Counted from the first letter of the stretch, positions 8 to 15,648 are shown. The stretch: 28,295 nt of DNA from Crocinitomicaceae bacterium (GCA_041303135.1 JBFYPS010000359.1:1-28295), one strand, 5' to 3'. Notes: generated from the letters alone by a model not told the origin. Numbers and translations are program-made.

Positions 8-162
8 GATATTAGGACACTAGGATTTTATGATATTAGGACTTTTGATTTTTGTAAAAATTGAAATTAATCTAAAAATTTGGAAACGGCAACATAAATC
101 AAAGTCTTAAAGTTGCTTAGCAACGTGTCCTAAAATCTTAATATCTTAAAGCGCAGCGGGTC
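8..162 (-). repeat. Octamer tandem-inverted-repeat element, copy 1 (may extend past the window start)
   Basis: Left arm has 8-bp units gatattag/gacactag/gattttat/gatattag/gacttttg (8-47). The right arm has the reverse-complement units plus the hairpin gttgc-tta-gcaac (112-124). The reverse complement of 91-162 matches 13145-13216 at 66/72 ungapped. Confidence 0.9.
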
Positions 163-166
163 TTTT

Positions 167-2068
167 TTAATAAGCGCGTTCGTTTTTACCTTCAACGAAA
201 TTAATAAATGCACGGTTGACCACTTTATTTCCACCTGGTGTTGGATAGTTTCCTGTGAAATACCAATCTCCCAAGTGATCTGGAATGGCTGCATGTAAGT
301 TTTCTATTGTTTGATATACAATTTCAACTTTTGCTTGTATGTTTGCAGGAGTTAACAATTCAGCGATTTTTGCAGAAATCTCTTCCGCTGTGAAAGGCGC
401 ATAAATTTCTTTGACGTAATTTTTGATTTGCTCTTTCGGCAATTTGGCTTGATCCAAACATTTTCTATAAACATCGTCAATGATGTGTCCTTTTCCTTGT
501 TCTTTCAGTAATTGAATGGCAGCTTCGAAAGCAATAAAATCTCCCATTTTCGCCATGTCGATTCCATAACAATCAGGATAACGAATCTGCGGAGCTGAAG
601 AAACAACAACGATTTTCACAGGTTCAAGTCTGTCCAAAATACGCAAAATACTTTGCTTCAAAGTGGTTCCACGAACGATACTATCGTCAATTACAACCAA
701 ATTGTCTTTTCCTCGAACGACTGAGCCGTAAGTGATATCGTAAACATGCGCCACTAAATCGTCGCGTGCATCATCTTGCGTGATGAATGTTCTCAATTTT
801 GCATCTTTGATCGCGATTTTTTCAATGCGCGCTCTTTGGTAGATGATTTCTTTCAATTGTTCCGGAGTAGGATTTGCTCCTAAATCCAAAATTGCTTGAA
901 ATTTTCTATCGTTAAGGTAATCTTCCAATCCCTTAATCATCCCATAAAAAGATGTTTCTGCAGTATTTGGAATGAATGAAAAAACGGAATTATCTAAATC
1001 ATAATCAACAGATTTCAATACTTGATTCACCACCAATTTCCCCAAATTGATACGTTCTTTGTAGATATCGATATCGTTTCCTCTGGAAAAATAAATGCGC
1101 TCAAAAGAACAACTTTTTCTTTCTCGAGGTTCGTTGATTTTAACTTCATTTACAGCACCTGATTTTTTGATAATCAAAGCGCTACCTGGAGTCAATTCTT
1201 GTACTTGGTCGTATTTCAAACGGAAAGCAGTTTGAATTACAGAACGTTCAGATGCTACAACGCAAACTTCTTCATCTTCATACCAAAATGCTGGACGAAT
1301 TCCAGAAGGATCGCGCAAAACAAATGCATCACCATGACCAAATAATCCTGCCATTGCATAACCACCATCCCAATCTGAAGAAGCTCTTTTTAGGATTTTT
1401 TCGATGTTTAAATTTTTGGCAATGCGCTCATAAATTTCAGGAATGGAGAAACCTTGTGCGGTCAAAGATTGCAACATTTCGTCGTTTTCTTCATCCAAAA
1501 AGTGACCTATTTTTTCCAATACGGTAACTGTATCGGATTTCTCTTTTGGATGCTGGCCGATTTCTAACAAGACATCAAAAAGTTCGTCAACATTGGTCAA
1601 ATTAAAATTTCCGGCAACAGCTAAATTTCTAGTAATCCAGTTATTTTGTCTTAAAAATGGGTGACAACTTTCAATGCTATTTCTTCCAAAAGTTCCATAT
1701 CTCAAATGTCCCAAGAAAAGTTCACCAGTAAAACCAGCGTTTTTTTTCAGGTATTCAACATCTTTCAATTTGGAAGCATCTTCTTCCTCGATTTGTTTGA
1801 ATCGACTGTTGATGTGGTCAAAAATGTCTTGAATTGGTTTGCTGTCGATAGAACGGTAGCGAGAAATATAACGCTCGCCAGGCTGCATGTCAAATTTAAT
1901 ATTTGCCACACCAGCTCCGTCTTGTCCGCGGTTGATTTGTTTCTCCATCAAAAGATGCAGTTTGCTCAAACCGTAAAAGGCAGTCCCATATTTTTCGAGA
2001 TAAAATTGAAGGGGTTTTTTCAATCTTAACAGTGCTATTCCGCACTCATGTTTGATCGGATCACTCAT
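167..2068 (-). CDS. purF: Amidophosphoribosyltransferase (long Bacteroidota-type PurF)
   Basis: Propeptide MSDPIKHE|CG gives an Ntn Cys. Motifs GHLRYGT, HPF, NGNL-like GNFNL, CSFERIYF, PRPP loop VVIDDSIVRGTT and YPDCYGID. Start moved to the ATG at 2068 because the longer ORF start overlaps the promoter box. Confidence 0.93.
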   Translation of the reverse strand: MSDPIKHECGIALLRLKKPLQFYLEKYGTAFYGLSKLHLLMEKQINRGQDGAGVANIKFDMQPGERYISRYRSIDSKPIQDIFDHINSRFKQIEEEDASKLKDVEYLKKNAGFTGELFLGHLRYGTFGRNSIESCHPFLRQNNWITRNLAVAGNFNLTNVDELFDVLLEIGQHPKEKSDTVTVLEKIGHFLDEENDEMLQSLTAQGFSIPEIYERIAKNLNIEKILKRASSDWDGGYAMAGLFGHGDAFVLRDPSGIRPAFWYEDEEVCVVASERSVIQTAFRLKYDQVQELTPGSALIIKKSGAVNEVKINEPRERKSCSFERIYFSRGNDIDIYKERINLGKLVVNQVLKSVDYDLDNSVFSFIPNTAETSFYGMIKGLEDYLNDRKFQAILDLGANPTPEQLKEIIYQRARIEKIAIKDAKLRTFITQDDARDDLVAHVYDITYGSVVRGKDNLVVIDDSIVRGTTLKQSILRILDRLEPVKIVVVSSAPQIRYPDCYGIDMAKMGDFIAFEAAIQLLKEQGKGHIIDDVYRKCLDQAKLPKEQIKNYVKEIYAPFTAEEISAKIAELLTPANIQAKVEIVYQTIENLHAAIPDHLGDWYFTGNYPTPGGNKVVNRAFINFVEGKNERAY

Positions 2069-2089
2069 GGCTCTTCCTGAAATTTTTTG

Positions 2090-2120
2090 CAAAGATACTT
2101 ATAAAATGCAGGGATTACAA
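2090..2120 (-). promoter_or_regulatory. Bacteroidota sigma-ABfr-type promoter for purF
   Basis: Minus strand: TATCTTTG (-7 box TAnnTTTG, 2097-2090), with TTG at 2120-2118 and a 20-nt spacer. Confidence 0.7.
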
Positions 2121-2175
2121 TTTAAGGAAAGGAATAAAAAAGAATTCAGCTAAATCAGTTGTAAAAATCTTTCAA

Positions 2176-2886
2176 TCAAGAGATTACTTCTGTTTCATTT
2201 CCATCTTCTGTATTTTCAGAAATGTTTTCAATTGCAGCTGTATTTTTCTTTTTTCTTGGGAAGTAACTTCTTTGTCTGATTAAAATCAACACCACACCGC
2301 AAGTGATTGCACCATCGGCGACATTCCAAACTGCTGGAAAAACATCTTTGCCGCCCAACCAAGGAATCCAAGAAGGCCAAGTGAAATCGAATTGAAACAT
2401 ATCCACTACATTTCCGAGTAAAAATCCAGCGTGTCGTACTTCTACTTTCCCGTAGAAATCGCAATTGGCAAAAACACCAGAACCTTCCAATTGGTTGAAA
2501 GACATACAAGGTTTGAATGGAAAGATAAAATCATAGAACATGGAATCGATGAGGTTACCTGTTGCGCCTGCAAAAATAAATCCAATCGCGATAAGAAACT
2601 CCATTTTCATTCCTGCTTTGGCTTGTTTGAACCAGTAATAGCCAATTCCACCAATGGCAATAATTCTGAAAATACTTAAGGCCAATTTACCCCAAATTCC
2701 AGAACCAAATGTGGTACCGAAAGCCATTCCTTGGTTTTCAACGTACACAATTTTGAACCAATTTCCAATTAAATTGAGCGGCTGATCCATGGTTGAAACA
2801 GAGGTTTTCACCCAAATTTTAATCAATTGGTCTAATAACAAAATAAGGGCCACGACAGCCCCTACAATAATTAATTTTTTTCTCAC
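2176..2886 (-). CDS. lspA: Lipoprotein signal peptidase II
   Basis: Motifs DQLIKIWV, ENQGMAFG, GATGNLIDS, GNVVDMF and VWNVAD. Likely GTG start at 2886, 4 nt after the dksA stop. Confidence 0.93.
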   Translation of the reverse strand: MRKKLIIVGAVVALILLLDQLIKIWVKTSVSTMDQPLNLIGNWFKIVYVENQGMAFGTTFGSGIWGKLALSIFRIIAIGGIGYYWFKQAKAGMKMEFLIAIGFIFAGATGNLIDSMFYDFIFPFKPCMSFNQLEGSGVFANCDFYGKVEVRHAGFLLGNVVDMFQFDFTWPSWIPWLGGKDVFPAVWNVADGAITCGVVLILIRQRSYFPRKKKNTAAIENISENTEDGNETEVIS

Positions 2887-2890
2887 AATG

Positions 2891-3271
2891 TTATTTTTGA
2901 GCGTTTTTGGCATCGATGCTAAGTGTAGCATGAGGTACCAAACGCAATCTTTCTTTTTGGATTAATTTTCCTGTAACACGACAAATTCCATACGTTTTAT
3001 TTTCAATGCGCATTAAAGCACTTTGCAAATTTTGAATGAATTTTTCTTGACGTGCACTCAATTGCGCAACTTCCTCACGAGAAAGCGTTTCAGAACCATC
3101 TTCCATCATGTTGAAAGTACGACCTGTATCATCTGTTCCGTGATTATCACTGTTTGAAAGTGAACTTTTCAACATGTCATAATCCTCTTGCGCTTCTTTC
3201 AACTTTTCGTTGATTAATATTTTGAATTCTTCCAATTCAGCATCGGAATATCTTGTTTTCTCCTGTGACAT
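2891..3271 (-). CDS. TraR/DksA family transcriptional regulator
   Basis: N-terminal coiled coil followed by ALMRIENKTYGIC..TGKLI.KERL..VPHATL, the C-terminal DksA finger region. Confidence 0.9.
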   Translation of the reverse strand: MSQEKTRYSDAELEEFKILINEKLKEAQEDYDMLKSSLSNSDNHGTDDTGRTFNMMEDGSETLSREEVAQLSARQEKFIQNLQSALMRIENKTYGICRVTGKLIQKERLRLVPHATLSIDAKNAQK

Positions 3272-3316
3272 ATTTTTCTACTTTTTTGAGACTTTCGTCT
3301 CTTTCACTACTGCTGA

Positions 3317-3324
3317 CAAATATA
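3317..3324 (-). promoter_or_regulatory. -7 promoter box for dksA-lspA
   Basis: TATATTTG on the minus strand, 46 nt upstream of the ATG. Confidence 0.6.
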
Positions 3325-3543
3325 ATTCAAAATTATTTGGAATAACTACTAAATTATACCACTTTATCAACAATTTATGTAAATTTAATATTTAGTTTGA
3401 TTTAAGTATATTTTTCATATGTGTTTATTATTCAGTTGTTTGTGTCTAATTTGTCAATTCTAAAATTCCTGTTACTTTGTTAACTTTTAAAAATTAAACG
3501 TTTTTGCATTTAAATTGTACAACTTTAAAATTCAAATTGAATT

Positions 3544-3918
3544 ATGATGAGAATTAAAAAATGCTTTTCAATCGTTATATTATGTTTAGTGTATCTCAAT
3601 CTTTTTGGTCAAGTGCAAGAAAGAGAAATGGTGCCGTTGACTCCGATTTTTAGTCAAACAGTTTCAGTCAATTCTGAACGCCCTTATTTTGAGATCAAAA
3701 ATCTAAACTTGTTTCCTGACAATGAGTTATTGATATACAACAGATGGGGAAATGAAATTTTCAAAGCTTCTCCGTACTTGGGAAATTGGAATTGTACAGT
3801 TAAAGGCAAAACCAAAAAAGAACCTGACACTTTAATTGAAAGTGGTACTTATTTTTACATTTTCATAGATAAAAAAACGCAAGAGAATTACCAAGGATAT
3901 TTTAATTTCTTGCGCTAA
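3544..3918 (+). CDS. Small exported protein consisting almost only of a gliding-motility/T9SS type-B C-terminal domain (CHU_C-like)
   Basis: Signal peptide ending LFG-Q, then F.I.N....DNELLIYNRWG.EIF....Y...W.......GTYFYI......QGYF. Confidence 0.75.
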   Translation: MMRIKKCFSIVILCLVYLNLFGQVQEREMVPLTPIFSQTVSVNSERPYFEIKNLNLFPDNELLIYNRWGNEIFKASPYLGNWNCTVKGKTKKEPDTLIESGTYFYIFIDKKTQENYQGYFNFLR

Positions 3919-4586
3919 TCAAATTTGACTGGAAAGATGAAATAGGAGCGGACTGCGCGTCCATTGTTTATCGCTGGAATCCATTTTGGCATTGATTTCA
4001 CAACTCTTAGGGCTTCTTTGTCGCATTCAGGGCAATTAAATGCACTTTTAACTATTTGAATATTGGATAACATTCCGTCTTTTTCAACGACCAATTTTAT
4101 ATAACACTTCTGAAAAGCTTTTTCTTCTGCCTGCACAGGTTTTTGAAGTATTTTTGAAATGTATAAATTCATTTTTTCTGGTCCTCCAGGAAATGATGCC
4201 GCAACTTCTGGAACGTCATAAATTTTTTCTTCGTCTTGAATATATTCTGGTTCAGGAACTGCGACTTGGAAATCTAAACCCAATCGTTCTTCAATTGTTT
4301 TCACTTCCAATTCGATTTCTTGAAGATCTTTTGGATTACTCTTTGTGGCAATGTAGATATAGGTTTCATAATCTTTTCCACTTTTGAAAATAATTGTGTC
4401 ACTTTTTTTGATCGAAGAAACTTTAATCATTCCTTCTTTGTCTGTTATACCAATGCTTGCTTTATCGACAATTACATCAACATTTGCAATTGGAATTCCT
4501 TCACCATCAGTGACTAAAAAAGTGGTTTGTGCTTGCAGAATATTTACAAATAAACTTACAATTAGCAATGAAATTAAATTTTTCAT
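3915..4586 (-). CDS. TonB C-terminal-domain protein with an N-terminal carboxypeptidase-regulatory-like domain
   Basis: Signal peptide, GIPIANVDV...GITDKEG, then ASFPGG...KLVVEKDGMLSNIQIV..DKEALRVVKSMPKWIPA...GRAVRSYF. An alternative ATG lies at 4619. Confidence 0.85.
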   Translation of the reverse strand: MKNLISLLIVSLFVNILQAQTTFLVTDGEGIPIANVDVIVDKASIGITDKEGMIKVSSIKKSDTIIFKSGKDYETYIYIATKSNPKDLQEIELEVKTIEERLGLDFQVAVPEPEYIQDEEKIYDVPEVAASFPGGPEKMNLYISKILQKPVQAEEKAFQKCYIKLVVEKDGMLSNIQIVKSAFNCPECDKEALRVVKSMPKWIPAINNGRAVRSYFIFPVKFD

Positions 4587-4624
4587 AAGCAAGAAAAAGA
4601 ACAACTTTTGAAGTTGCATTTAAC

Positions 4625-4632
4625 CAAATGTA
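4625..4632 (-). promoter_or_regulatory. -7 promoter box for the TonB-C gene
   Basis: TACATTTG on the minus strand, 5 nt before the ATG at 4619. Confidence 0.6.
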
Positions 4633-4662
4633 CGATATTTAATCAGACTAAAAAATTTAATT

Positions 4663-6498
4663 TTAATCTTGTTTCACCACTTTGAAAGTTGAAATTTTTT
4701 CACCTTGTTGCAACTGAATTAAATAAATTCCAGGAGAAAAATTTCCAAAATCAACACTTGTTGCATTCGTGCTTTTAAAGATATTTTTCCCTGCAAAATC
4801 AAATATTTCGACCTTAAATTCACCGGATTTTGAATCAATGTGAACGATGTTTTGCGTTGGATTTGGATAGATTTTAAAGTCTTCATTTTCATTTTCTTCT
4901 ATCGACAAAGAACTTGTACAAGGTACAAAATTCACTACATCATCCCACAAATCTGATTGTGCTGTTCTCAATCCGCACTGATTTCCGTTCGGCGTTGCTT
5001 TGATTTCCAAATAGCAATCTGAAGCGGCATTGTATTGAGGCCAAGCGACTAAATCTGTCCCATTTGGATTTCCTGTTTTTGCAAAATTTATCCAATAATT
5101 CAACATATTTACTTGAACAGAATCGTCTGCTGGTTTGAATAATATTCCAGAACCTGCAGTGGCATTTTCCCAATTGTTGAATACATAAAAAAGTTCCATT
5201 CCGTGGTAACTTCCATAATTTGCAAGAGCCGCCAACGTATGTTTGTGGCTGAAAAAATACCTCCAAACTGGTTCAGTTTGATTTTGACTTACGCATTGCG
5301 CTGTTCTTCTTGTAGTTGCTGTGAATTGTGAATCCGTCAACAAACCAATATAAGATTGTTTGGCTTGCGTTGCGTTTGATCCTGGAGGATACAACGCGGT
5401 TGCAGTCGCCTGATTTGCAGCAGGAACGGACGCATTTATTAATGCTGTAACCATTGCGGGAAGCACTGTTTGCGGAGCTGACAAACTCATTTCATCTGCA
5501 TTTGAACCAATAATCAAAGGAACTTTGTTGTAAACACCGCTTTGAATGGTTTGTAAAGGATAATTTGAAAAAACCAAATTGTCGATGACTGGTTGCCATG
5601 CCAATTGCACTGCGCCACCTGAAAGGGGAGAAGTTTCGTATTTCACCAAACTATCGCTTGGCAATGATCGCATATAAGCAATTTTTTGAACGTCATTTCC
5701 TGTGGTTGTAAAGTCTGCGACATAATTAATTCCTTTCGTTTTCGAATCGCTGTAAGTATTTACAACCGGCATCGCACTTTGGATACAAGCACGTTGAAAC
5801 AAACCAGCGGCAAGTGGCGTCGTGAGCAAGTTTCCAACGTTGATTCCGCCGGCACTTTCACCAAAAATCATCACTTTGGTCGGATCACCGCCAAAATTAG
5901 CAATGTTATTTTGTACCCATTTCAAGGCTAAAATTTGGTCTAAAACGGCATAATTTCCTGCAGTTCCATTCGCGTTTTCAGGTTCTAAACCTGGGTGAAC
6001 TAAAAATCCCAAGGGACCCAATCTGTATTGAATTGTTACAATCACTGCATCGCCTCGTTCCGCCATGTTTTTACCGAAATACATTTGCGTTCCTCCATTT
6101 ACTTCATTCGCGCTTCCTTGCTGATTTCCACCGCCGTGGATAAAAACCAATACAGGTCTCATTCCAGCGCCCACTTGTGGCGTCCAGACATTCAAATACA
6201 AGCAATCTTCATTTCCAACAATCGTCGAAGTTGTATCGCCTTGTTGAAAAACTTTCTGAGGACAAACGGGCGCAAAACTTGTTGTTGCTAAAGTATTTGC
6301 CCAATTGGTAGGATTTTCTGGTGCCTTCCATCTCAAATTATTGACAGGCGGTTTCGCATAAGGAATTCCTAAAAATTGAATTACATTTCCATTTTGAGCA
6401 CCTTGAATGGAACCGAATTGTGTGGAAACGGTTTGTGCTTGAATTGCACCAACATTGGCGAGTATCAAAAAGACGACAGAAAGTATTCTTGTATTCAT
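4663..6498 (-). CDS. Secreted type-B carboxylesterase (alpha/beta hydrolase) with a T9SS type-A sorting domain
   Basis: Motifs FLGIPYAKPP, EDCLYLNVW, HGGG oxyanion loop, GESAGG nucleophile, GSNADE and SYHGMEL. C-terminal KIYPNPT...G.Y.I...K..KQD CTD. Confidence 0.92.
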   Translation of the reverse strand: MNTRILSVVFLILANVGAIQAQTVSTQFGSIQGAQNGNVIQFLGIPYAKPPVNNLRWKAPENPTNWANTLATTSFAPVCPQKVFQQGDTTSTIVGNEDCLYLNVWTPQVGAGMRPVLVFIHGGGNQQGSANEVNGGTQMYFGKNMAERGDAVIVTIQYRLGPLGFLVHPGLEPENANGTAGNYAVLDQILALKWVQNNIANFGGDPTKVMIFGESAGGINVGNLLTTPLAAGLFQRACIQSAMPVVNTYSDSKTKGINYVADFTTTGNDVQKIAYMRSLPSDSLVKYETSPLSGGAVQLAWQPVIDNLVFSNYPLQTIQSGVYNKVPLIIGSNADEMSLSAPQTVLPAMVTALINASVPAANQATATALYPPGSNATQAKQSYIGLLTDSQFTATTRRTAQCVSQNQTEPVWRYFFSHKHTLAALANYGSYHGMELFYVFNNWENATAGSGILFKPADDSVQVNMLNYWINFAKTGNPNGTDLVAWPQYNAASDCYLEIKATPNGNQCGLRTAQSDLWDDVVNFVPCTSSLSIEENENEDFKIYPNPTQNIVHIDSKSGEFKVEIFDFAGKNIFKSTNATSVDFGNFSPGIYLIQLQQGEKISTFKVVKQD

Positions 6499-6606
6499 AT
6501 TTGTTTATTTATGAGATAAATGTAGCAAGAAAAACAAATCGAAAATTGAAATGGATTTGATTTAACAAATAATCAGCTAGATTTTAACAAAAAGCTTTTA
6601 TTTTCT

Positions 6607-7656
6607 TTAATCTTCCACATTGAACGGAATAACAACACTGTAAAATGAATCTATTGCCTCGCCGTTTTTTATTGCAGCTTGCATTTTCGGCATTGTCATA
6701 ACCAATCTAATACTTTCTTGGTCACAGGCCTCGCATTGAGGCACACCTCGAATTACTTTCGGAGAGTTAATAATTCCTTCTTTTGAAACTTGAAACAAAA
6801 CAATTGATTTTCCAGCAAAATGTTGCTTTCCATTTACAGTGGGGAGAAGTAAATTTTCTCTCAAAAAGGATTCAAGCGCGGCTTTTCCACCAATAAATTC
6901 AGCGTTTTTATCCGTAGGTTTTTGATTTTTTAAATTTTCGTTCTCTGTTACTGTGGCATCAAAATCAGCATTTTCTTCATTTCTATATGACGACTGAGGT
7001 TGAAATAATTGAAAATATTCTTGAGGGTATTTTTTCAGCTTGTAGTTTGCCATGAAATCACTTTCTACTTTAGCAAAAAGGGCTTCGTTTTTCAATTTTG
7101 TGCTGCGTAGTTTAAGATATGAGGTCAATAATGAGTCATAAAACAATGGAATAAAAGCATTTACTTGGATATATTTTTCTTGGTAATCAGTTAAGCAAAC
7201 GTTGTAATCCGCAATTTTTTTATTTAACAATTCGATTTCCCTTAATTGGTTTTCCAAATCACTTTTTTCTAAAAGTTGAAATTCGGTTTCAGCAGAAAAA
7301 AAAGTTTTGTAATCACATTTTTTCTCCACAAAAGTCTTACTGTCATTGTTTAGTAAAACTTGTATGGATTCATATTTTGTTGAATCGTAAGTTTTCAATT
7401 TTAAATAGTTGAATTTGAAAACCACATCTTGATTTCGGTCATAATATCGGACGTAGAAAGCCTCTAATTCCAGTAAATTTTTTCGTAAGCTATCAGTGAC
7501 TTTATATGCTTTATTATTTGATTTTGTTAATTCTTCATATTTCCGAAAATTCAAATCATAATTATTTTTAGCCGATTCAATTTGCTTCCTCAAATTCTGG
7601 CTAGACGCTGTTTTTGCAAAAATGCAAAGAATGAGAATCAATGATTTTTTAAGCAT
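6607..7656 (-). CDS. TonB C-terminal-domain protein with a long coiled-coil N-terminal region
   Basis: Signal peptide MLKKSLIL..TASS-Q, a helical heptad-rich middle, then AEFIGG...VLFQVSKEG.I....DQESIRLV..MP....AIKNG. Start set at 7656. Confidence 0.8.
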   Translation of the reverse strand: MLKKSLILILCIFAKTASSQNLRKQIESAKNNYDLNFRKYEELTKSNNKAYKVTDSLRKNLLELEAFYVRYYDRNQDVVFKFNYLKLKTYDSTKYESIQVLLNNDSKTFVEKKCDYKTFFSAETEFQLLEKSDLENQLREIELLNKKIADYNVCLTDYQEKYIQVNAFIPLFYDSLLTSYLKLRSTKLKNEALFAKVESDFMANYKLKKYPQEYFQLFQPQSSYRNEENADFDATVTENENLKNQKPTDKNAEFIGGKAALESFLRENLLLPTVNGKQHFAGKSIVLFQVSKEGIINSPKVIRGVPQCEACDQESIRLVMTMPKMQAAIKNGEAIDSFYSVVIPFNVED

Positions 7657-7706
7657 ATCATCAAAATAAATTTTCAAAACTTGCACTAAAAGTAGTAAAT
7701 AAAAGC

Positions 7707-7743
7707 AAAAAAAAAGGACAATTACCAACCGTAATCATCCCTT
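7707..7743 (-). terminator. Intrinsic terminator after the DUF2911 gene
   Basis: Minus strand GGGAUGAUUAC-gguug-GUAAUUGUCCU followed by a U-run. Confidence 0.75.
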
Positions 7744-7763
7744 TAAGAGTGAGATATTATTTT

Positions 7764-8621
7764 TTATTTACCGCCTTTTTTAGCTGTTGCGATGATTTCA
7801 TCTGCCATTTTAACGTAAGCATTGTCGCCGTCTGCTGTCGCTAATTTTTTCACGATCTCTGCTGTTGCCATCGCGTTTTTGTAGTCTTTCAATTCCAATT
7901 GGATTTTAGCTTTCAAATTCCCAACCCAATAAGCATCAGGATTTAATTCAAATGCTTTTGTTGCCCAATCCAAGGCTTGTTTCATGTCTTTTTTGTTGTC
8001 GTAATAATACGAAGCTGCTGTATAAAATGGTCTCGCGTCTTTTGCCATTGTTGTTTCAATGTTTTTCATCACGCGCTCATCTACTTCTGTCGTGATATCA
8101 AAAGCTACCACTGTATTTTCCCAAGACATTTCCAACGTTGCTTGAAGCGGTTTTAAATTGGCGAAATCGATGGTAAAAGTTTCCGTTTTTTCTGTTTTGG
8201 TTTTCACAGCTGCTTTGAAACGCATCAAATCTTCTGCTTCAGAATATCCAAAAGCGCCACTCAATTTGGTGTTTTTGTTCAAAATAATTGTCCATTCTGT
8301 TTTGCTAGGAATTGTAAACAAAGAATAAGTTCCAGCTGGTACTGCTTTACCTTCAATTTTTACATCTTCACCAAATGTGATTTTTGTACAAGCATTCGCA
8401 CCAGTTCTCCAAATGGCATCAAATGGCACGACATCACCAAAAACAACTCGTCCGCGAGCGCTTGGTCTGCTGTATTCAACAGTCAATTCTGTTAAACCAA
8501 AGTTTTGTTTTACTGTTGAAAAAGGACTTAAAGAAGGTGTTTTGATCGATTGTGCTTGGCTGTTAAAACCAAATCCAACTGCGACAAATACTGTCAAAAA
8601 TGCTGAGATAACTTTTTTCAT
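7764..8621 (-). CDS. DUF2911 domain protein with a C-terminal TPR-like segment
   Basis: Signal peptide, PSLSP...Q.FGLTE..VEYSRPS.RGR.VFG..VP....WRTGAN, GTYSLFTIP, and a C-terminal YYTAASYY..ALDWATKA helical repeat. Confidence 0.88.
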   Translation of the reverse strand: MKKVISAFLTVFVAVGFGFNSQAQSIKTPSLSPFSTVKQNFGLTELTVEYSRPSARGRVVFGDVVPFDAIWRTGANACTKITFGEDVKIEGKAVPAGTYSLFTIPSKTEWTIILNKNTKLSGAFGYSEAEDLMRFKAAVKTKTEKTETFTIDFANLKPLQATLEMSWENTVVAFDITTEVDERVMKNIETTMAKDARPFYTAASYYYDNKKDMKQALDWATKAFELNPDAYWVGNLKAKIQLELKDYKNAMATAEIVKKLATADGDNAYVKMADEIIATAKKGGK

Positions 8622-8756
8622 TTTGATTTTTTTTAATTTATTGAAGTGTGAAATTACGAAATATTCGGGATTCCAATTCTTTTTAGAAACAAGTTGAATT
8701 CAGAATTGTTTTGAAAGGCAATAAAAGATGAATCAGTTGATTATCTCGAGCGTATT

Positions 8757-10208
8757 TTATCCTTTTTTGAAACTTTTCATTGGATCTTCTAAAAACCAGA
8801 ATATCCCAACAAATAGCAACAACAAGAAATTATTGAAGAAAAATTTCACGATTCCTCCAGGTTCAAAACTGAACCAAGTTGAAATCCAGAAAAGCAACAA
8901 ACTGCTTCCTAGATAAACTACAAATTTGCGTAAATTGTATTTGATTGGATAATATTTTTGTCCGAGTAAATAAGACGCAACCATTTGAGCACCATATACA
9001 ATCATCGTTGCCCAAGCGCATGCCATGTAGCCATATTTTGGTATAAAAAGCAAATTGATAATAATTGTCAAACTCGCGCCACCAATGGCAATGTAAGCAC
9101 CAAATTTGGTTTGTCCGCTCAGTTTGTACCAAATACTTTGATTGTAATAAATTCCTAAAAAAATGTTTCCAAGCAACAAAACGGGCACAACGCTTAAACC
9201 AACCCAATAGCTTTCTTTGCTGATGAAATGCTTGAAAATATCAATGTTCAAAGTCACTAATAAAAACACGACGCAAACCATCGCAATGAAATAGTTCATG
9301 ACTTTGATATAGACTTTGTTTTTGTCTTGATTTTTAGCCTGTGAAAAGAAAAATGGTTCCGCGGCATAGCGATATGCTTGCAATAAAATCGTGACCAACA
9401 TCGCCAGTTTGTAGCATGCGCTGTAAATCCCTACTTGAATCATCGAATATTCAATCGAATGTCCACTCGCGTGTGTAACGTGTTTGAGCAAAATTCGGTC
9501 GATGGTTTCATTGATAATTCCCGCAAAACCAGCAATGACCAATGGTGCTGCATATTTGAGCATTTCCTTGGCAAGTTCAACATTGTAGGTCCATTTTAGG
9601 TACAAAAAATCTTTGTACAACATCACAGGTTTCACCAAAGAAGACAATAAATTGGCTATCAAAATAAAGAAAACAGCTTCTTCGGGATTGCTTCTATCGA
9701 CCACAAAACCAATCAAAATCACATTGAGTAAAATATTGACTCCGATGGATGTAAATTGAATGGTTGCAAATTTGACTGCTTTTTCTTCAGCGCGCAGTTT
9801 GGCTAAAGGCAAGCTTGTCACCGCATCAATGCAAACGATAGTGATGAGTAAAATAATGTATTCATTGTGATCTGAATACAGCATCGCATTGGCAATGTTT
9901 TGATTGAAAAAAATCATGATCGCAAAAAATGCAATATTGATTCCGATGACGGTGAGAAAACTATTTCGAAAAACTTCTTCGCGGTCTTCTTTTTCGTGTA
10001 AAAATTTGAAAAAAGAAGTTTCCATTCCAAACGTTAGAATGACAATTAAAAACGCAACCCATGCATACAATTCAGAAACGACGCCGTATTTTTCAGGGTC
10101 GATTACTTTGGTGTGCAACGGAACGAGCAAATAATTTAGCAGACGTCCCAAAATACTTGGAAGTCCATAAATGGCTGTTTGCCCTAAAAGTTTTTTAATT
10201 GGATTCAA
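8757..10208 (-). CDS. Oligosaccharide/polysaccharide flippase (Wzx/MOP superfamily)
   Basis: About 12-14 hydrophobic segments; LAGQT-like LGQTAIYGL, FGMETSFF, IDRILL, YSACYKLA and YRYAAEPFFF. TTG start directly abuts the upstream stop. Confidence 0.85.
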   Translation of the reverse strand: MNPIKKLLGQTAIYGLPSILGRLLNYLLVPLHTKVIDPEKYGVVSELYAWVAFLIVILTFGMETSFFKFLHEKEDREEVFRNSFLTVIGINIAFFAIMIFFNQNIANAMLYSDHNEYIILLITIVCIDAVTSLPLAKLRAEEKAVKFATIQFTSIGVNILLNVILIGFVVDRSNPEEAVFFILIANLLSSLVKPVMLYKDFLYLKWTYNVELAKEMLKYAAPLVIAGFAGIINETIDRILLKHVTHASGHSIEYSMIQVGIYSACYKLAMLVTILLQAYRYAAEPFFFSQAKNQDKNKVYIKVMNYFIAMVCVVFLLVTLNIDIFKHFISKESYWVGLSVVPVLLLGNIFLGIYYNQSIWYKLSGQTKFGAYIAIGGASLTIIINLLFIPKYGYMACAWATMIVYGAQMVASYLLGQKYYPIKYNLRKFVVYLGSSLLLFWISTWFSFEPGGIVKFFFNNFLLLLFVGIFWFLEDPMKSFKKG

Positions 10209-10988
10209 TTAAGCGCGAAAATTTGGTTTTCTTTTTTCGATAAATGCCGTTGTTCCTTCGTTGAAATCAGCTGTTCCAAAACAAGCGCCAAATTCAGCAA
10301 TTTCGACTTCAAAACCATTCACACCACTTCTGAAATTGGCATTCACAGCGTTGATTGCGCTTGCAATGGCAGTAGCGGAATTATTTAGGATTTTATTTGC
10401 CATTTTTTCGGCAGTTGCATGTAATTCCTCCAATGCACATACATCGTTTACCAATCCCCATTTCAGTGCTTCTTCAGCTGGAATCATTCCTGCAGTGAAA
10501 ACCATTTCATTCGCTTTTCCACGTCCTACCAATTGCGGTAAACGTTGTGTTCCACCGTAACCGGGAATCAATCCCAAAGAAACTTCTGGAAGTCCCATTT
10601 TTGCATTTGATGAAGCAATTCTGATATGACAAGACATCGCCAATTCTAGTCCGCCACCCAATGCAAAACCATTGACAGCAGCGATGACTGGTTTGCTCAT
10701 ATTTTCAATAAAATCAAACAACAAAGCTTGGCCTTTTGCAGCCAATTCCTTTCCTTGCAATGTATCAAAATCAGCGAATTCTTTGATGTCAGCGCCCGCA
10801 ACGAAAGATTTTTCGCCTGAACCTGTTAAAATCACAACGCCCGTTTTGGAATCGTTGTTTGCTGCGTCTAAAGCCAATCTCAATTCTTGGATTGTTTCTT
10901 TGTTCAAGGCGTTCAATTGCGATGGACGATTGATAGTTATCCAAAGAATTTGACCTTTTTGTTCTGCAATAATATTGTTGTATGCCAT
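10209..10988 (-). CDS. Enoyl-CoA hydratase/isomerase (crotonase family)
   Basis: Motifs INRP..LNALN, FVAGADI, IAAVNGFALGGGLELAM, GLPEVSLGLIPGYGGTQRL and AFIEKRKP.F. Start set at MAYNN (10988). Confidence 0.93.
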   Translation of the reverse strand: MAYNNIIAEQKGQILWITINRPSQLNALNKETIQELRLALDAANNDSKTGVVILTGSGEKSFVAGADIKEFADFDTLQGKELAAKGQALLFDFIENMSKPVIAAVNGFALGGGLELAMSCHIRIASSNAKMGLPEVSLGLIPGYGGTQRLPQLVGRGKANEMVFTAGMIPAEEALKWGLVNDVCALEELHATAEKMANKILNNSATAIASAINAVNANFRSGVNGFEVEIAEFGACFGTADFNEGTTAFIEKRKPNFRA

Positions 10989-11083
10989 GATTTGTAAATT
11001 TTTCATTGTAAAGATAAAAATATCAGTCAAGGAAAGGATGAAATGAGGGAGGATTTATTTTTTCAGTTCAACATTCGAACAAC

Positions 11084-12589
11084 CTAAAAATCCTTTTTTG
11101 ATTTAAAAACTATCGTTTGAAAACCCAATTTTTGCAATCTTTTTAAATCTTCTTCCATAGGGATAAATGGATAGGCGATTTCATTGTGGAAGTACATCCA
11201 TGAAATATTGGCGTATTCAAAATCATTGATTCCAAAAACGATTCTTTTGGGATTATCTTTGCCATTTTTAACGATGAAATTTTGCGCATCAATTCTTGAG
11301 ATTCGACCAGATTGTTCCATGGTGTCATTCTTAAATCCATAGGCTGTGAGCGTTGGACCTGGTTTGAACATCCAATTTAATACTAACAATGAAAACAAAG
11401 CCAAAGCGAAACGACGAACCCAATTTATTTTAATCAATGCTGAAAAATGGGTCAATCCAAACGCGATAATCAGGGCAACAAAACTGAAAACAGGAATTGC
11501 AAAAGCGGGCATTTTGGTAGGCACGTAGGTGAAAAATCCGTAAACAAGGATTAAACTTGAAAGCATTAAAAGGATATTTTTCCTCGAAATTTTCGCTAAA
11601 AAAAGTGCAACAATTCCAAGTAAAAGCAAAATAAAAAATTCAGTTTGATGAAAGTAAACTGTCTGAATTTGTTCATAATGAAACCAAGCAGAACCTTCGT
11701 GTTTTTCAATTACTTCTGAGACATGTTTGGCATTGTAAGCCATTTCGTGCGCTGCTTCGTTAGGAAATTTGATGAAGGTATAAATTTGCCAAGGAATGAA
11801 AACCAAGCAAGTTATTCCCAGTGCTTTCACAAAACAGATTGCTTTTTGCCAAAAATGTTCTTGTTTGAGTTGCTGCAAAAGGACAAATCCCCATGCGCCA
11901 AAAACGAGTAAACCGACCAACCATTTTGTCAAAATTGCACAACCAGCGAAAACGCCAATCCAAATCAACCATTTTTGTTTTTGAGAATGTTGAAATTCGA
12001 ACCACGCCCAAAATGAAAATGTGATGTAGCAAAGAAAAATGAAATCATTGTGATCGGTACCAATTCTTCCAGAAACTAATCCGAGCAAGAAACTTGAATG
12101 CATCACAAGCAATGCCGCTAGAAATCCTGTTTTTCGATTGATAATCAAGGTTCCTATTCTAAAAATGGAGGCGACCAATAAACCATGAAAAAGTACCGAC
12201 GGCAATCGCACGGCAAAAACATTGTTTCCAAAAATCTTGATGCTTAATGCCATTTGCCAAGTAAAAAGCGGTTGTTTGTGTAGCCAAACTTGCGCATTGA
12301 CCCAGTTTTCGGGATTTAAACCCAAAGGTTCGTTTCTAAATAACCTCGGTACAAATGGATTTTCGGATAAATTTTTCCCAACCAAGGCATGAAATTGTTC
12401 ATCCCAAGTGTAGAAATAGGGCGCGAACATCGCAAAAGCAGCAGCTAAAAAGAATGCTGTGAAAAAAAGTAGAATCGAAGTGAATTTTTGAAATTTGAAA
12501 TATGAAAAAATGGTAAAACCAAGAAAAATCAGCCAACAAATTAGAAGAATCAAAGAATGATTTCCGATATTTTGGATGGATTCAATCAT
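11084..12589 (-). CDS. GT-C fold glycosyltransferase (ArnT/PMT, family 39/83-like)
   Basis: Multi-pass membrane protein with WDE, HKQPLF.W, AVRLPS and LTKWLVG motifs. Confidence 0.85.
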   Translation of the reverse strand: MIESIQNIGNHSLILLICWLIFLGFTIFSYFKFQKFTSILLFFTAFFLAAAFAMFAPYFYTWDEQFHALVGKNLSENPFVPRLFRNEPLGLNPENWVNAQVWLHKQPLFTWQMALSIKIFGNNVFAVRLPSVLFHGLLVASIFRIGTLIINRKTGFLAALLVMHSSFLLGLVSGRIGTDHNDFIFLCYITFSFWAWFEFQHSQKQKWLIWIGVFAGCAILTKWLVGLLVFGAWGFVLLQQLKQEHFWQKAICFVKALGITCLVFIPWQIYTFIKFPNEAAHEMAYNAKHVSEVIEKHEGSAWFHYEQIQTVYFHQTEFFILLLLGIVALFLAKISRKNILLMLSSLILVYGFFTYVPTKMPAFAIPVFSFVALIIAFGLTHFSALIKINWVRRFALALFSLLVLNWMFKPGPTLTAYGFKNDTMEQSGRISRIDAQNFIVKNGKDNPKRIVFGINDFEYANISWMYFHNEIAYPFIPMEEDLKRLQKLGFQTIVFKSKKDF

Positions 12590-13122
12590 TTTTTAGCACG
12601 CAAGCGTTTGTAGATTTGAATGGCAATCATCAGTCCAACCGCCACGCCAAAAAATCCGAGTGTACCAGTAATCCAATTGAAAGTTGATTTCAAAACAACG
12701 AGGAAAACAATGGCAACTAAAAACAAGGTCGCGAGTTCATTCCACAAGCGCAATTGTGTTGATTTCCATCGGAAAATATTTTGTTTGAATTTAACCATGA
12801 TGTTTTGACACAAAAAATGGTAAACTAAGAGCAATACGACAAAAACCAACTTGATTTGAAACCAGGGCGCATACAAATAACTAGGATTTAGAATCACCAT
12901 CCAAGTGCCAAAAATGACGGTCAATACCATCGCTGGAGTAGTAATAATCCACCATAATTTCTTCTCCATGATGACAAATTGATTGGAAAGAATTTCTTTT
13001 TCAACCTCAGATTTTGCTTGCGCTTCCACATGATAAATAAATAAGCGAACCATGTAAAATAACCCTGCAAACCAACTCACCACAAAAATGATATGTAAAG
13101 CCTTAACTGTTAATAAATCCAT
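12586..13122 (-). CDS. hemJ: Protoporphyrinogen IX oxidase HemJ (CopD/UPF0093 family)
   Basis: Motifs KALHIIFVVSWFAGLFY..RLFIYH.E, MEKKLW.II.TPAM, KL.FV.LL..YH and RLWNE..T. Confidence 0.9.
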   Translation of the reverse strand: MDLLTVKALHIIFVVSWFAGLFYMVRLFIYHVEAQAKSEVEKEILSNQFVIMEKKLWWIITTPAMVLTVIFGTWMVILNPSYLYAPWFQIKLVFVVLLLVYHFLCQNIMVKFKQNIFRWKSTQLRLWNELATLFLVAIVFLVVLKSTFNWITGTLGFFGVAVGLMIAIQIYKRLRAKK

Positions 13123-13126
13123 GGCA

Positions 13127-13134
13127 CAAAAATA
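13127..13134 (-). promoter_or_regulatory. -7 promoter box for hemJ (near-leaderless geometry)
   Basis: TATTTTTG followed by TGCC and then ATG. Confidence 0.6.
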
Positions 13135-13144
13135 CTAAAAAAAA

Positions 13145-13308
13145 GACCCGCTTCGCTTTAGGATTTTAAGATATTAGGACACGTTGCTACGCAACTTTAA
13201 GACTTTGATTTTTGTTTCTGCAAAATTTTTAGAATGATTGCAAATAATAAAGAATATCACAAGTCTTATCATCCTAATATCTTAATATCTTAAAATCCTT
13301 TTGTCTTG
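13145..13308 (+). repeat. Octamer tandem-inverted-repeat element, copy 2
   Basis: Left arm taggattt/taagatat/taggacac/[gttgc-tac-gcaac]tt/taagactt. Right arm aagtctta/tcatccta/atatctta/atatctta/aaatcctt/ttgtcttg (13261-13308). Homologous to 8-162 in inverted orientation. Confidence 0.9.
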
Positions 13309-13338
13309 AAAAAAAATACTTTCAATTTGATAATTGAT

Positions 13339-13817: not shown

Positions 13818-13836
13818 TTCATTGATTCAAATTTTG

Positions 13837-13874
13837 AAAGGATTGTAAGCTTTAAGTTTGCAATCCTTTTTTTT
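13837..13874 (+). terminator. Intrinsic terminator after the bacilliredoxin gene
   Basis: aaaggattgtaagc-tttaa-gtttgcaatccttt followed by a T-run. Confidence 0.85.
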
Positions 13875-15142: not shown

Positions 15143-15166
15143 TTTTTTAGAAAAGGATATTGATTG

Positions 15167-15203
15167 AACACCGTTTGAACTTGGTTTGAATGGTGTTTTT
15201 TTT
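15167..15203 (+). terminator. Intrinsic terminator after the Fe-ADH gene
   Basis: aacaccgtttgaac-ttg-gtttgaatggtgtt followed by a T-run. Confidence 0.85.
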
Positions 15204-15219
15204 ATAGTTTTCTTTAAGT

Positions 15220-15495
15220 TTTGCCCGCTCTGGGGCAAAGATTTGTAGGTATTCAGTTTTTTAAATAGTTCAGCCCTGCTAGGGCTGTGCGTTGATTTTT
15301 AAAATAGTGTAGGTATTGCAGAGGTTTGATTTTCAATTTGTCTTTGTTTTTAAAAATGATTTATTCTTTTGATGGATAACTGTAAATTTTTAATTTATCA
15401 TTTTTAGCAAAATACAAAGCCTCAGAGAGGCTGAACAATCCTAGAAAAAAATTGTTTTTTTTTCGTTTTTGTTGCCCCAGCGTGGGCAAAACAAA
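15220..15495. repeat. Cluster of four GC-rich REP-like hairpins in mirror arrangement
   Basis: H1 tttgccc-gctctg-gggcaaa (15220-15239), H2 cagccct-gct-agggctg (15271-15287), H3 agcctc-aga-gaggct (15418-15432), H4 ttgccc-cagcgt-gggcaa (15472-15489). revcomp(H1) resembles H4 and revcomp(H2) resembles H3. Confidence 0.8.
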
Positions 15496-15648
15496 ATTTT
15501 TATATATTAAGCGATTTTAATCGTGAATCACCATTTCACCAAGCAAGAAGAAATCCATTTTCATCTGATTCATTCCCTTGTTTGTCGGTTTTTGTTTCTT
15601 TATAGAAGAGAAGAAGAAAACAGAAGGAAAAAACACCATAATTTAAAC

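Follow-up and report, generated by a model that had tools for sequence, protein, structure and literature searches.

Repetitive extragenic palindromes (REPs) are located mostly between unidirectional or convergent open reading frames (ORFs), and in the arrangements called REPtrons a small gene of nuclease type lies between repeats of its own (PMC3733652). A small ORF of the PF05635 (S23p) family is found inside the long, stem-forming terminal inverted repeat of the intervening sequences (IVSs) of 23S rRNA (PMC4990558). Here, we analyzed two copies of a non-coding element in a 28,295-nt stretch of DNA from a Crocinitomicaceae bacterium (GCA_041303135.1 JBFYPS010000359.1:1-28295), the whole of which is referred to as the window: copy 1 spans positions 1-173 on the minus strand and copy 2 spans 13133-13316 on the plus strand. 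These elements, approximately 140-195 nt long and devoid of an ORF, probably belong to the general class of ORF-less palindromic intergenic repeats that comprises REPs and bacterial interspersed mosaic elements (BIMEs), the enterobacterial repetitive intergenic consensus (ERIC) and Correia elements, and MITEs (miniature inverted-repeat transposable elements), with slippage and recombination between the arms as the driver of their turnover. The window family belongs to a larger group of hairpin modules with octamer arms, which occupy particular intergenic slots in these genomes.

The two copies could be aligned over their full length with 85% column identity, and every sequence statement of the first-pass annotation, which had proposed their homology, was reproduced. 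In particular, the reverse complement of 91-162 matches 13145-13216 without gaps at 66 of 72 positions, both copies open with an A-run followed by GACCCGCT(G/T)CGCTTTA, and the core strings AAATTTTTAGA and ATCA[AC]AAGTC[CT]TA are common to both at equivalent offsets. A repeat finder extended the block to 78 nt at 92% identity (91-168 versus 13139-13216), and the element boundaries given above fall slightly beyond those first proposed. Within the window, arrays of TA[AG]GA[TC]NN-like octamers with their inverse are restricted to these two loci, and the 5' box GACCCGCTnCGCTTTA (GACCCGCTnCGCT) occurs exactly twice against 0.01 occurrences expected by chance. The G+C content of the elements is 27%, compared to 36% for the window; both fold better than dinucleotide shuffles (z = -4.2 for copy 1 and z = -6.6 for copy 2), and a search with nhmmer, using a profile built from the element alignment, recovered them with E=3.5e-40 and E=1e-39, respectively. 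Copy 1 starts at the TAA stop codon of a purF-like gene and runs into the left window edge, where it ends in a T-run; the longest contig recorded for the Brx protein of the window measures 28,295 nt, so the window is probably a whole contig that broke inside this copy, as is expected of a repeat, and several other contigs also end inside a copy. Copy 2 starts 16 nt upstream of the hemJ start codon, with its A-run 15 nt past the complement of that codon, and sits between the divergent hemJ and brx genes.

The alignment of 16 copies revealed a modular plan. The 5' part consists of an A-run, the box GACCCGC-TnC-GCT, and about three 8-nt units (TTARGAYN; TTAAGATA/TTAGGATT/TTAGGACA), and it is followed by hairpin 1 (CGTTGC-nnn-GCAAC), an inner left arm (TTTAAGACTTTGATTT), a variable AT-rich centre and an inner right arm (AAATCAAAAGTCTTAA), the inner stem AAGACTTTGATTT/AAATCAAAAGTCTT enclosing the variable centre. 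Three to five inverse octamers (NATCYTAA), often with a T-run after them, complete the 3' part. The terminal inverted arms, built of repeated octamers, measure 20-36 nt and are 80-95% complementary, with the 5' box outside them. In copy 1, read on the minus strand throughout, this plan comprises the A-run (163-168), which overlaps the purF-like TAA stop (167-169); the 5' box GACCCGCTGCGCT (150-162), kept in nearly all family members; the left arm with octamers TTAAGATA TTAAGATT TTAGGACA (126-149); hairpin 1, GTTGC-TAA-GCAAC (112-124); the inner left arm TTTAAGACTTTGATTT (96-111), which pairs with 36-52 according to both the fold and the cognate-pairing test described below; the inner right arm AAAATCAAAAGTCCTAA (36-52); the right arm, for which the repeat finder gave the inverse octamers TATCATAA AATCCTAG TGTCCTAA TATC (8-35); and the closing T-run at the window edge (1-7). 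The corresponding parts of copy 2, on the plus strand, are the A8 run and 5' box GACCCGCTTCGCT (13137-13157), the left arm TTAGGATT TTAAGATA TTAGGACA (13158-13181), hairpin 1, GTTGC-TAC-GCAAC (13183-13195), the inner stem and AT-rich variable centre (13196-13268, with 13196-13211 pairing with 13253-13268 in the fold), the right arm with inverse octamers TCATCCTA ATATCTTA ATATCTTA AAATCC, again from the repeat finder (13269-13298), and the tail TTTTGTCTTG, paired in the fold with AAGAC of the 5' end, with a second A8 run behind it (13299-13316).

Many copies hold a second hairpin in their centre, GTTGC-TTC-GCAAC, which at locus L009 takes the form GTTAC-TTC-GTAAC. Since the internal hairpin at locus L011 reads GACCCGTTGC-TTC-GCAAC, the 5' box, GACCCGC-TTC-GC, looks like a stem-shortened paralogue of the internal hairpin, to judge from its sequence. 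We could also notice that the three successive octamers beginning with TAG or TAA, at 8-nt spacing, place stop codons in all three frames (13158-13181, and 126-149 on the minus strand), and that the inverse arm likewise stops all frames on the other strand, which the CACGGAT-type arms described below do not; this pattern may be a simple by-product of AT-richness.

Full-length copies fold with z between -3 and -9 on both strands, and no strand asymmetry was detected in folding energy or in G-U use, as in a symmetric palindrome that does not point to either strand as the one transcribed. Octamer slippage prevents a column-wise alignment of the arms, and RNAalifold, applied to the MAFFT alignment, returned 12 invariant pairs only and no covariation. 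The pairing of the arms, in which 1-nt bulges occur, was compared by a cognate test of duplex energy: the inner arms prefer their own partner over the partners of other copies (permutation p=0.007), and the outer octamer arms are fully interchangeable between copies (p=0.89). Hairpin 1 occurs in 16 distinct versions with nine loop forms; its 5-bp stem stays the same in 14 of them, is broken in one (L033) and is altered by two compensatory pairs in L048 (GCTTC/GAAGC). The significant folding, the conservation of hairpin 1 with its one compensated variant and the modest covariation in the inner stem are what would be expected if the family consisted of structured small RNAs or of cis-regulatory RNAs that function through the RNA fold. 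However, the symmetry of the two strands, the invariance of all RNAalifold pairs, the inconsistent orientation relative to genes, the unrelated sequences that fill the hemJ-brx slot in sister strains and the outcome of the Rfam search (0 matches at the gathering score and, even at E<=10, chance-level ones only) make an RNA family very unlikely.

The existence of a multi-copy non-coding family, as proposed in the first-pass annotation, was confirmed. A scan of one genome per species (185,579 genomes) with the exact hairpin-1 pattern identified 9 loci, all in freshwater metagenome-assembled genomes (MAGs) of Crocinitomicaceae/'Flavobacteriia', an independent scan of metagenomes with the 5'-box pattern identified 4 contigs from one sample (Ga0114967), and the profile search of 420 kb of fetched loci gave 42 matches, which correspond to about 12 independent sites between genes, so that further copies exist in several Crocinitomicaceae MAGs and in metagenomes. 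By these sequence searches, in which the ascertainment of copies is biased by the search patterns, the family is restricted to a freshwater Crocinitomicaceae lineage. No match to copy 2 was found by blastn among plasmids and phages, the pattern scan of viral contigs found none, and literature searches on MITEs, REP/RAYT, short tandemly repeated repetitive (STRR) sequences, PF05635 and GxxExxY topics yielded no description of these elements. Copies occur singly or head to tail, the longest array containing 4.5 units of 164 nt (L006), with three units in L011 and two in L013. A CRISPR array was considered and discarded, as the tandem units are whole and head to tail, with no spacers; an integron attC site, an rRNA IVS and parts of a diversity-generating retroelement were likewise rejected, all their defining features being absent.

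The genes next to the elements are all housekeeping genes (purF, hemJ, brx, ndk, ruvC and those for a low-molecular-weight protein tyrosine phosphatase, an O-methyltransferase and a ZIP transporter). In agreement with the first-pass annotation, which had seen no transposase in the window, neither a transposase nor a RAYT/HUH gene was found among the element neighbours in the fetched loci, nor were tRNA or tmRNA genes found near the elements. Orientation with respect to the neighbouring genes follows no rule across the roughly 12 sites: at about 5 the box comes right after a co-oriented stop codon, 2-3 copies are antisense to transcription (among them L005 and L012), and 3-4 lie between divergent genes. 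Copy 1 and the copies at L004, L010, L011 and L013 start at, or no more than 24 nt from, the upstream stop codon.

This arrangement could suggest host-selected bidirectional intrinsic terminators or insulators, in which an AT-rich stem lies between an A-run and a T-run and the resemblance among copies reflects common origin via duplication. At 5-6 sites the element abuts with its 5' end the stop codon of the co-oriented upstream gene; behind the right arm there is a T-run in copy 1, in L006 (unit L006a), in L010 and in every ndk-site allele, where it stands just upstream of the ndk promoter-like TATCTTTG; and the A-run on the opposite side would yield a U-run for antisense read-through. A scan for sigma-70 promoters stayed at chance level, its consensus being uninformative for Bacteroidota. 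Against a terminator purpose, 3-4 of the sites, including that of copy 2, separate divergently transcribed genes, arrays reach 4.5 units that such a purpose does not require, the elements may face either way relative to transcription (antisense in L005 and L012), and ordinary short terminators follow neighbouring genes, so we consider this explanation quite unlikely. Indeed, the conventional intrinsic terminators after brx (13836-13870) and after the iron-containing alcohol dehydrogenase (Fe-ADH) gene (15166-15198), with 15-16-bp stems, 3-nt loops and T-runs, indicate that the genome uses such terminators alongside the repeat elements.

The turnover of these modules could be followed in the hemJ-brx gap, which was collected through a short Brx protein anchor from about 45 contigs with Brx 98-100% identical. 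The outer boundaries are constant across strains, ending in CATGGCRCAAAAATACTAAAAA on one side of the insert and resuming with AAAAAAAATACTTTCAATTTG on the other, and the insert varies. Allele A, the standard element, is that of the window and of L027. Allele B (L001, L019) has the box, hairpin 1 and outer arms of A, and its inner module contains TAGATTAT-type octamers together with a GC-rich core that includes a 13-nt direct repeat; B' (L002/L022, L021, L028) is B minus 16 nt, which is exactly two octamers, B'' (L024) is B minus the 34 nt between the 13-nt direct repeats, and B''' (L020, L025) is B without the GC core. Allele C is a minimal form of about 150 nt (L029-L035). Allele D, by contrast with these ORF-less forms, is a 0.97-1.5-kb cassette without the 5' box and with an ORF of 107 or 123 aa (L014-18, L023, L026, L070-77), and in allele E (L031) the 5' box (GACCTGCTTCGCTTTAG) and first octamers are joined directly to a 1.8-kb cassette. 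When 1.2 kb of flanking genes were used for a neighbour-joining tree, which lacks bootstrap values, ignores recombination and can demonstrate no more than the absence of co-segregation between state and flank, the states were interleaved: the window (A) is placed amid D strains, L024 (B'') has L023 (D) as its sister, L026 (D) clusters with B and B', and L031 (E) with C. It follows that several switches of state have occurred among very close relatives. The slot was never empty among the relatives compared and always contained some module.

Some variation was also observed around this slot. A PMT_2 glycosyltransferase gene beside hemJ (11084-12589 in the window) is present in many relatives and absent from that place in L001, L020, L025 and L034, and it therefore constitutes a presence/absence polymorphism near the hemJ-brx hot spot. 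In relatives with Brx 86% identical and other synteny (L056/L058, around 1200-1370), the gap upstream of brx holds a perfect 23-nt inverted repeat, GTTGGCTTCGACTCCGCTCAGCC ... GGCTGAGCGGAGTCGAAGCCAAC, and most of this region is deleted in L063.

An allelic series like that at hemJ-brx was found in the slot upstream of ndk, which follows a NUDIX, HMA or Cu-oxidase gene. One allele is a small octamer hairpin (TAGACTTT TGGATTAT TAGATTTT ... GTCTTAGCATCTTAAAATC), other alleles have this hairpin broken up by GC mini-hairpins (GAC-TTC-GTC, CAC-TTC-GTG, GCC-TGC-GGC), and in L048/L053 a full window-type unit represents an insertion relative to L050/L054. This insertion is bracketed by a 12-nt repeat, AGTCTTAAC(A/G)TC, which belongs to the arm; thus, the window-type unit is present in L048 and absent in L050, and the slot itself is never empty. 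The homology between loci L005 and L008 extends over 1.55 kb, stops within the right arm and gives way to unrelated sequence, and the L003 copy, which is truncated by the end of its locus, loses its similarity past the left inner arm. The slots are hypervariable, and synteny can break inside an arm. In these comparisons, neither empty sites nor clear target duplications were found, and the orthologous slots are always occupied, by different alleles; mobilization in trans, which the first-pass annotation had inferred, is at most a possibility.

Other small repeats accompany these modules. The GC mini-hairpins, which have a 3-bp stem and a T(T/G)C loop (GAC-TTC-GTC, CAC-TTC-GTG, GCC-TGC-GGC, CGC-TGC-GCG), stand between octamers at two unrelated slots (L001 1960-2020, and the ndk slot of L047, L049 and L050), and they may represent a separate tiny repeat family. 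Two tandem units of about 170 nt in L003 (3200-3520) belong to a different octamer family (GAGACATT AGACTCGA GACCGAAG ... inverse AAAATCTAAAATCTTA), which indicates that several module families coexist in these genomes. In L006 (OZ260085.1; 2740-2865 and 1792-2739), behind the purF stop come, in this order, a short TAGACTTT/TAGATTCG octamer arm, an additional 315-aa gene for a protein sorted by the type IX secretion system, which is absent from the window, and the 4.5-unit array.

The ORF of the hemJ-brx cassettes encodes a GxxExxY protein (TIGR04256, E = 1e-38 to 1e-42; PF13366) of 107-123 aa, a member of a large family whose members are named by the NCBI annotation pipeline, and it is also found in this slot in strains with Brx identical to that of the window. 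The arms around the ORF are inverted CACGGAT(N)/ATCCGTG arrays with a period of 8-9 nt in three independent lineages, namely, the L014 type, L037 (in the hemJ-brx slot, with a protein 68% identical) and L036 (in another organism and at another site, 67% identical). Since this arm unit is conserved across a protein divergence that erased all else, a sequence-specific role for it is suggested. The cassettes are often flanked by long tandem arrays of hairpin units of about 120 nt with A-rich linkers; an array of about 1.2 kb, with units of about 120-240 nt that each contain AATCCGTGACCGCGCTGCAGCTACGAAGTAAATCCGTGGC, was observed downstream of the GxxExxY gene of L036 (2930-4130). In the comparison of an AlphaFold model of the protein (pLDDT 94.7) with known folds, the best match was Cas4 SSO0001 (E = 6e-6), followed by other RecB-type PD-(D/E)XK nucleases, so that a Cas4/RecB-type PD-(D/E)XK nuclease fold is predicted for GxxExxY; a sequence search of PDB found no relative, and our literature searches found no published study of the genomic context, flanks or function of the family.

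The first-pass annotation had associated similar inverted arrays in Bacteroidota with small PF05635 genes and suggested that the window elements could be empty versions of such a cassette; it had also named a GxxExxY protein among the ORFs that the arms might enclose. The association with small ORFs is borne out in part: in many sister strains the hemJ-brx slot does hold a gene amid similar hairpin modules, a GxxExxY gene, and no PF05635 match was found among the neighbours of any copy. An ORF stands between the arms of the D and E alleles, and window-type arms enclose none in any of the 42 matches. It is possible to hypothesize that the elements are decayed or empty derivatives of a GxxExxY (or PF05635) cassette, or non-autonomous copies mobilized by its Cas4-like nuclease in the manner of REPINs and RAYTs. 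The cassette shares with the elements the identical hemJ-brx slot and outer boundaries, an organization of A-rich linker, short-period arm, AT-rich centre and inverse arm, the tendency to form tandem arrays (those flanking cassette genes resemble the L006 array) and a GGAT/ATCC core in the units; its gene is old at hemJ-brx, where even the relative with a GxxExxY protein only 68% identical carries it; the protein has a nuclease-like model; and L031 joins the GACCTGCTTCGCTTTAG box and first octamers directly to a cassette. However, the cassette arms are built of CACGGAT(N)/ATCCGTG in all three lineages and those of the window type of TTARGAYN units (TTARGAY at their core), D alleles have neither hairpin 1, with its GTTGC stem, nor the GACCCGC box, which cassettes mostly lack, and CACGGAT clusters were found in the DNA examined only around the ORF, with no dispersed ORF-less copies. 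With the different arm units and the box that most cassettes lack, we regard a derivation from, or mobilization by, the cassette as rather unlikely.

A broader proposal, which we advance by analogy and with little confidence, is that the GxxExxY genes and the modules are the two parts of a so far undescribed system of Bacteroidota, mobile or homing in nature, a PD-(D/E)XK counterpart of the REPIN-RAYT pairs. In such a system, a minimal Cas4-like nuclease would recognize or cut hairpin or cruciform DNA formed by its cognate short-period arms, its activity would drive the copying of modules into slots, the formation of tandem arrays and the exchange of cassettes, and ORF-less families such as that of the window would be non-autonomous passengers of a cognate nuclease.

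Conserved motifs could also reflect arrays of binding sites for a DNA-binding protein, either nucleoid-associated or a regulator, with the 8-nt RGAY-centred units as recognition elements. An RGAT/RGAC core recurs at octamer periodicity in otherwise unrelated modules (TTAAGATA, TAGATTAT, TAGACTTT, GAGACATT, CACGGATT), and the conservation of the box and the stem extends to their sequence and is not confined to structure. Yet no candidate protein is known, the unit sequences drift widely between modules, and a strictly inverted layout in which each arm has a partner to pair with suggests a hairpin and not linear sites, which renders binding arrays highly improbable. Taken as pure explanations, the terminator, the small RNA and the binding array are all weaker than a partnership with a GxxExxY-like nuclease.

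We therefore return to the reading of the family as ORF-less palindromic repeats remodelled through their own arms. The differences among alleles consist of whole octamers, deletions between short direct repeats, nested replacement of the inner module, tandem multiplication and swaps with GxxExxY cassettes. The main routes of spread and turnover would be slippage during replication and recombination, whether homologous or illegitimate (template switching), between the degenerate, interchangeable octamer arms, events that hairpin or cruciform formation would favour; a conventional transposase is probably not involved, and a structure-specific nuclease acting in trans may help. Where an element lies after a gene, it would be co-transcribed, and its long stem and T-run could terminate or stabilize the message; otherwise, it would be a largely neutral or selfish structural repeat and not a dedicated RNA gene.

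Several observations weigh against this interpretation. The strict hairpin pattern matched only 1-3 loci per MAG; as about 1/10 of the copies found independently of that pattern satisfy it, tens of copies per genome are suggested, as an estimate and not a count. No empty site was found, no consistent target-site duplication could be recognized by eye at 13 junction pairs, and the A-runs that flank copy 2 and the copy at L007 on both sides are ambiguous as target duplications. About one-third of the sites separate divergent genes and would have no use for a terminator, which means that termination cannot be a general role. The 5' box and, in hairpin 1, the stem but not the loop are strongly conserved in sequence, beyond the need of a purely structural repeat, which hints at a specific protein partner; a GxxExxY-like nuclease would be the most obvious kind of candidate, in analogy to REPINs and RAYTs (PMC3733652). 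Finally, the data derive mostly from MAG and metagenome contigs, in which repeats are prone to collapse, and runs of N interrupt the arrays of L031, L032 and L057.

Compared to the described systems, the elements resemble REPs, BIMEs and REPINs in being extragenic palindromes in many copies that occur as singletons, inverted doublets or tandem clusters, often right after stop codons, and are inherited vertically within a lineage, and the GxxExxY cassettes resemble the gene-plus-own-repeats layout of REPtrons. Different from REPs, the unit is about 165 nt instead of 20-40 nt, the conserved hairpin is CGTTGC-nnn-GCAAC with no terminal GTAG/CGTC tag, the arms consist of degenerate 8-nt tandem units, sites between divergent genes are not depleted (3-4 of about 12), and the gene that shares the slot encodes, instead of a RAYT, a predicted PD-(D/E)XK nuclease with arms unlike those of the window type. 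With MITEs, ERIC and Correia elements they share the length of 100-200 nt, the long imperfect inverted arms, the intergenic, non-coding and AT-rich nature, the possible function as terminators and a presence that is polymorphic between strains. However, their ends are asymmetric, with the 5' box on one side only, head-to-tail arrays are frequent, and inner modules are replaced at a fixed site; moreover, they show no clear target-site duplication, no related autonomous insertion sequence was found in the fetched loci, and the GxxExxY cassettes share with them the slot and not the ends. The GxxExxY-type arrangement recalls the 23S rRNA IVSs, the precedent to which the PF05635 association of the first-pass annotation was traced, although the elements studied here are not in rRNA, have octamer-built arms and are accompanied by no PF05635 gene that we could find. 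The STRR sequences of cyanobacteria, reportedly described by Mazel et al. in 1990 as intergenic, lineage-specific heptamer arrays, sometimes in inverted pairs able to form hairpins, are similar as lineage-specific intergenic tandem units of short period; they differ in the period (7 nt versus 8) and in the host phylum, and we know of no conserved box or hairpin module in them. The octamer-built stem is unusual, and the association with a nuclease cassette is under-described.

As for the genes that border the two copies, the purF-like gene, encoding a glutamine amidotransferase, extends over 167-2092 on the minus strand with its stop codon touching copy 1, and exact-protein look-ups of its product with either start codon matched no record. 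The HemJ-like (UPF0093) gene (12586-13122, minus strand) is transcribed away from copy 2, and the gene for the BrxA/B bacilliredoxin (PF06491; 13404-13817, plus strand) begins 88 nt downstream of it. A different nested palindrome was noticed at 15190-15500, in the gap between the Fe-ADH gene and a gene for a 283-aa protein: its outer arms (15218-15238 / 15472-15492) are 90% complementary, it contains four small GC-rich hairpins (GCCCGCTCTGGGGC, AGCCCTGCTAGGGCT, AGCCTCAGAGAGGCT and GCCCCAGCGTGGGC), and the length and small ORF calls of the region vary among relatives.

The family breaks the assemblies of abundant freshwater Bacteroidota and marks recombination hot spots between core genes. The slot series ties these ORF-less palindromes to the GxxExxY protein family, a link that suggests a candidate job for GxxExxY, which would act as a structure-specific nuclease on the short-period inverted arrays around its own gene. 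If this is true, the REP/RAYT paradigm, in which intergenic repeats are domesticated, would gain a second enzyme class; if it is not, the elements would still serve as a marker for strain typing and assembly diagnostics and as an example of how slippage in degenerate tandem units creates and remodels long hairpins.

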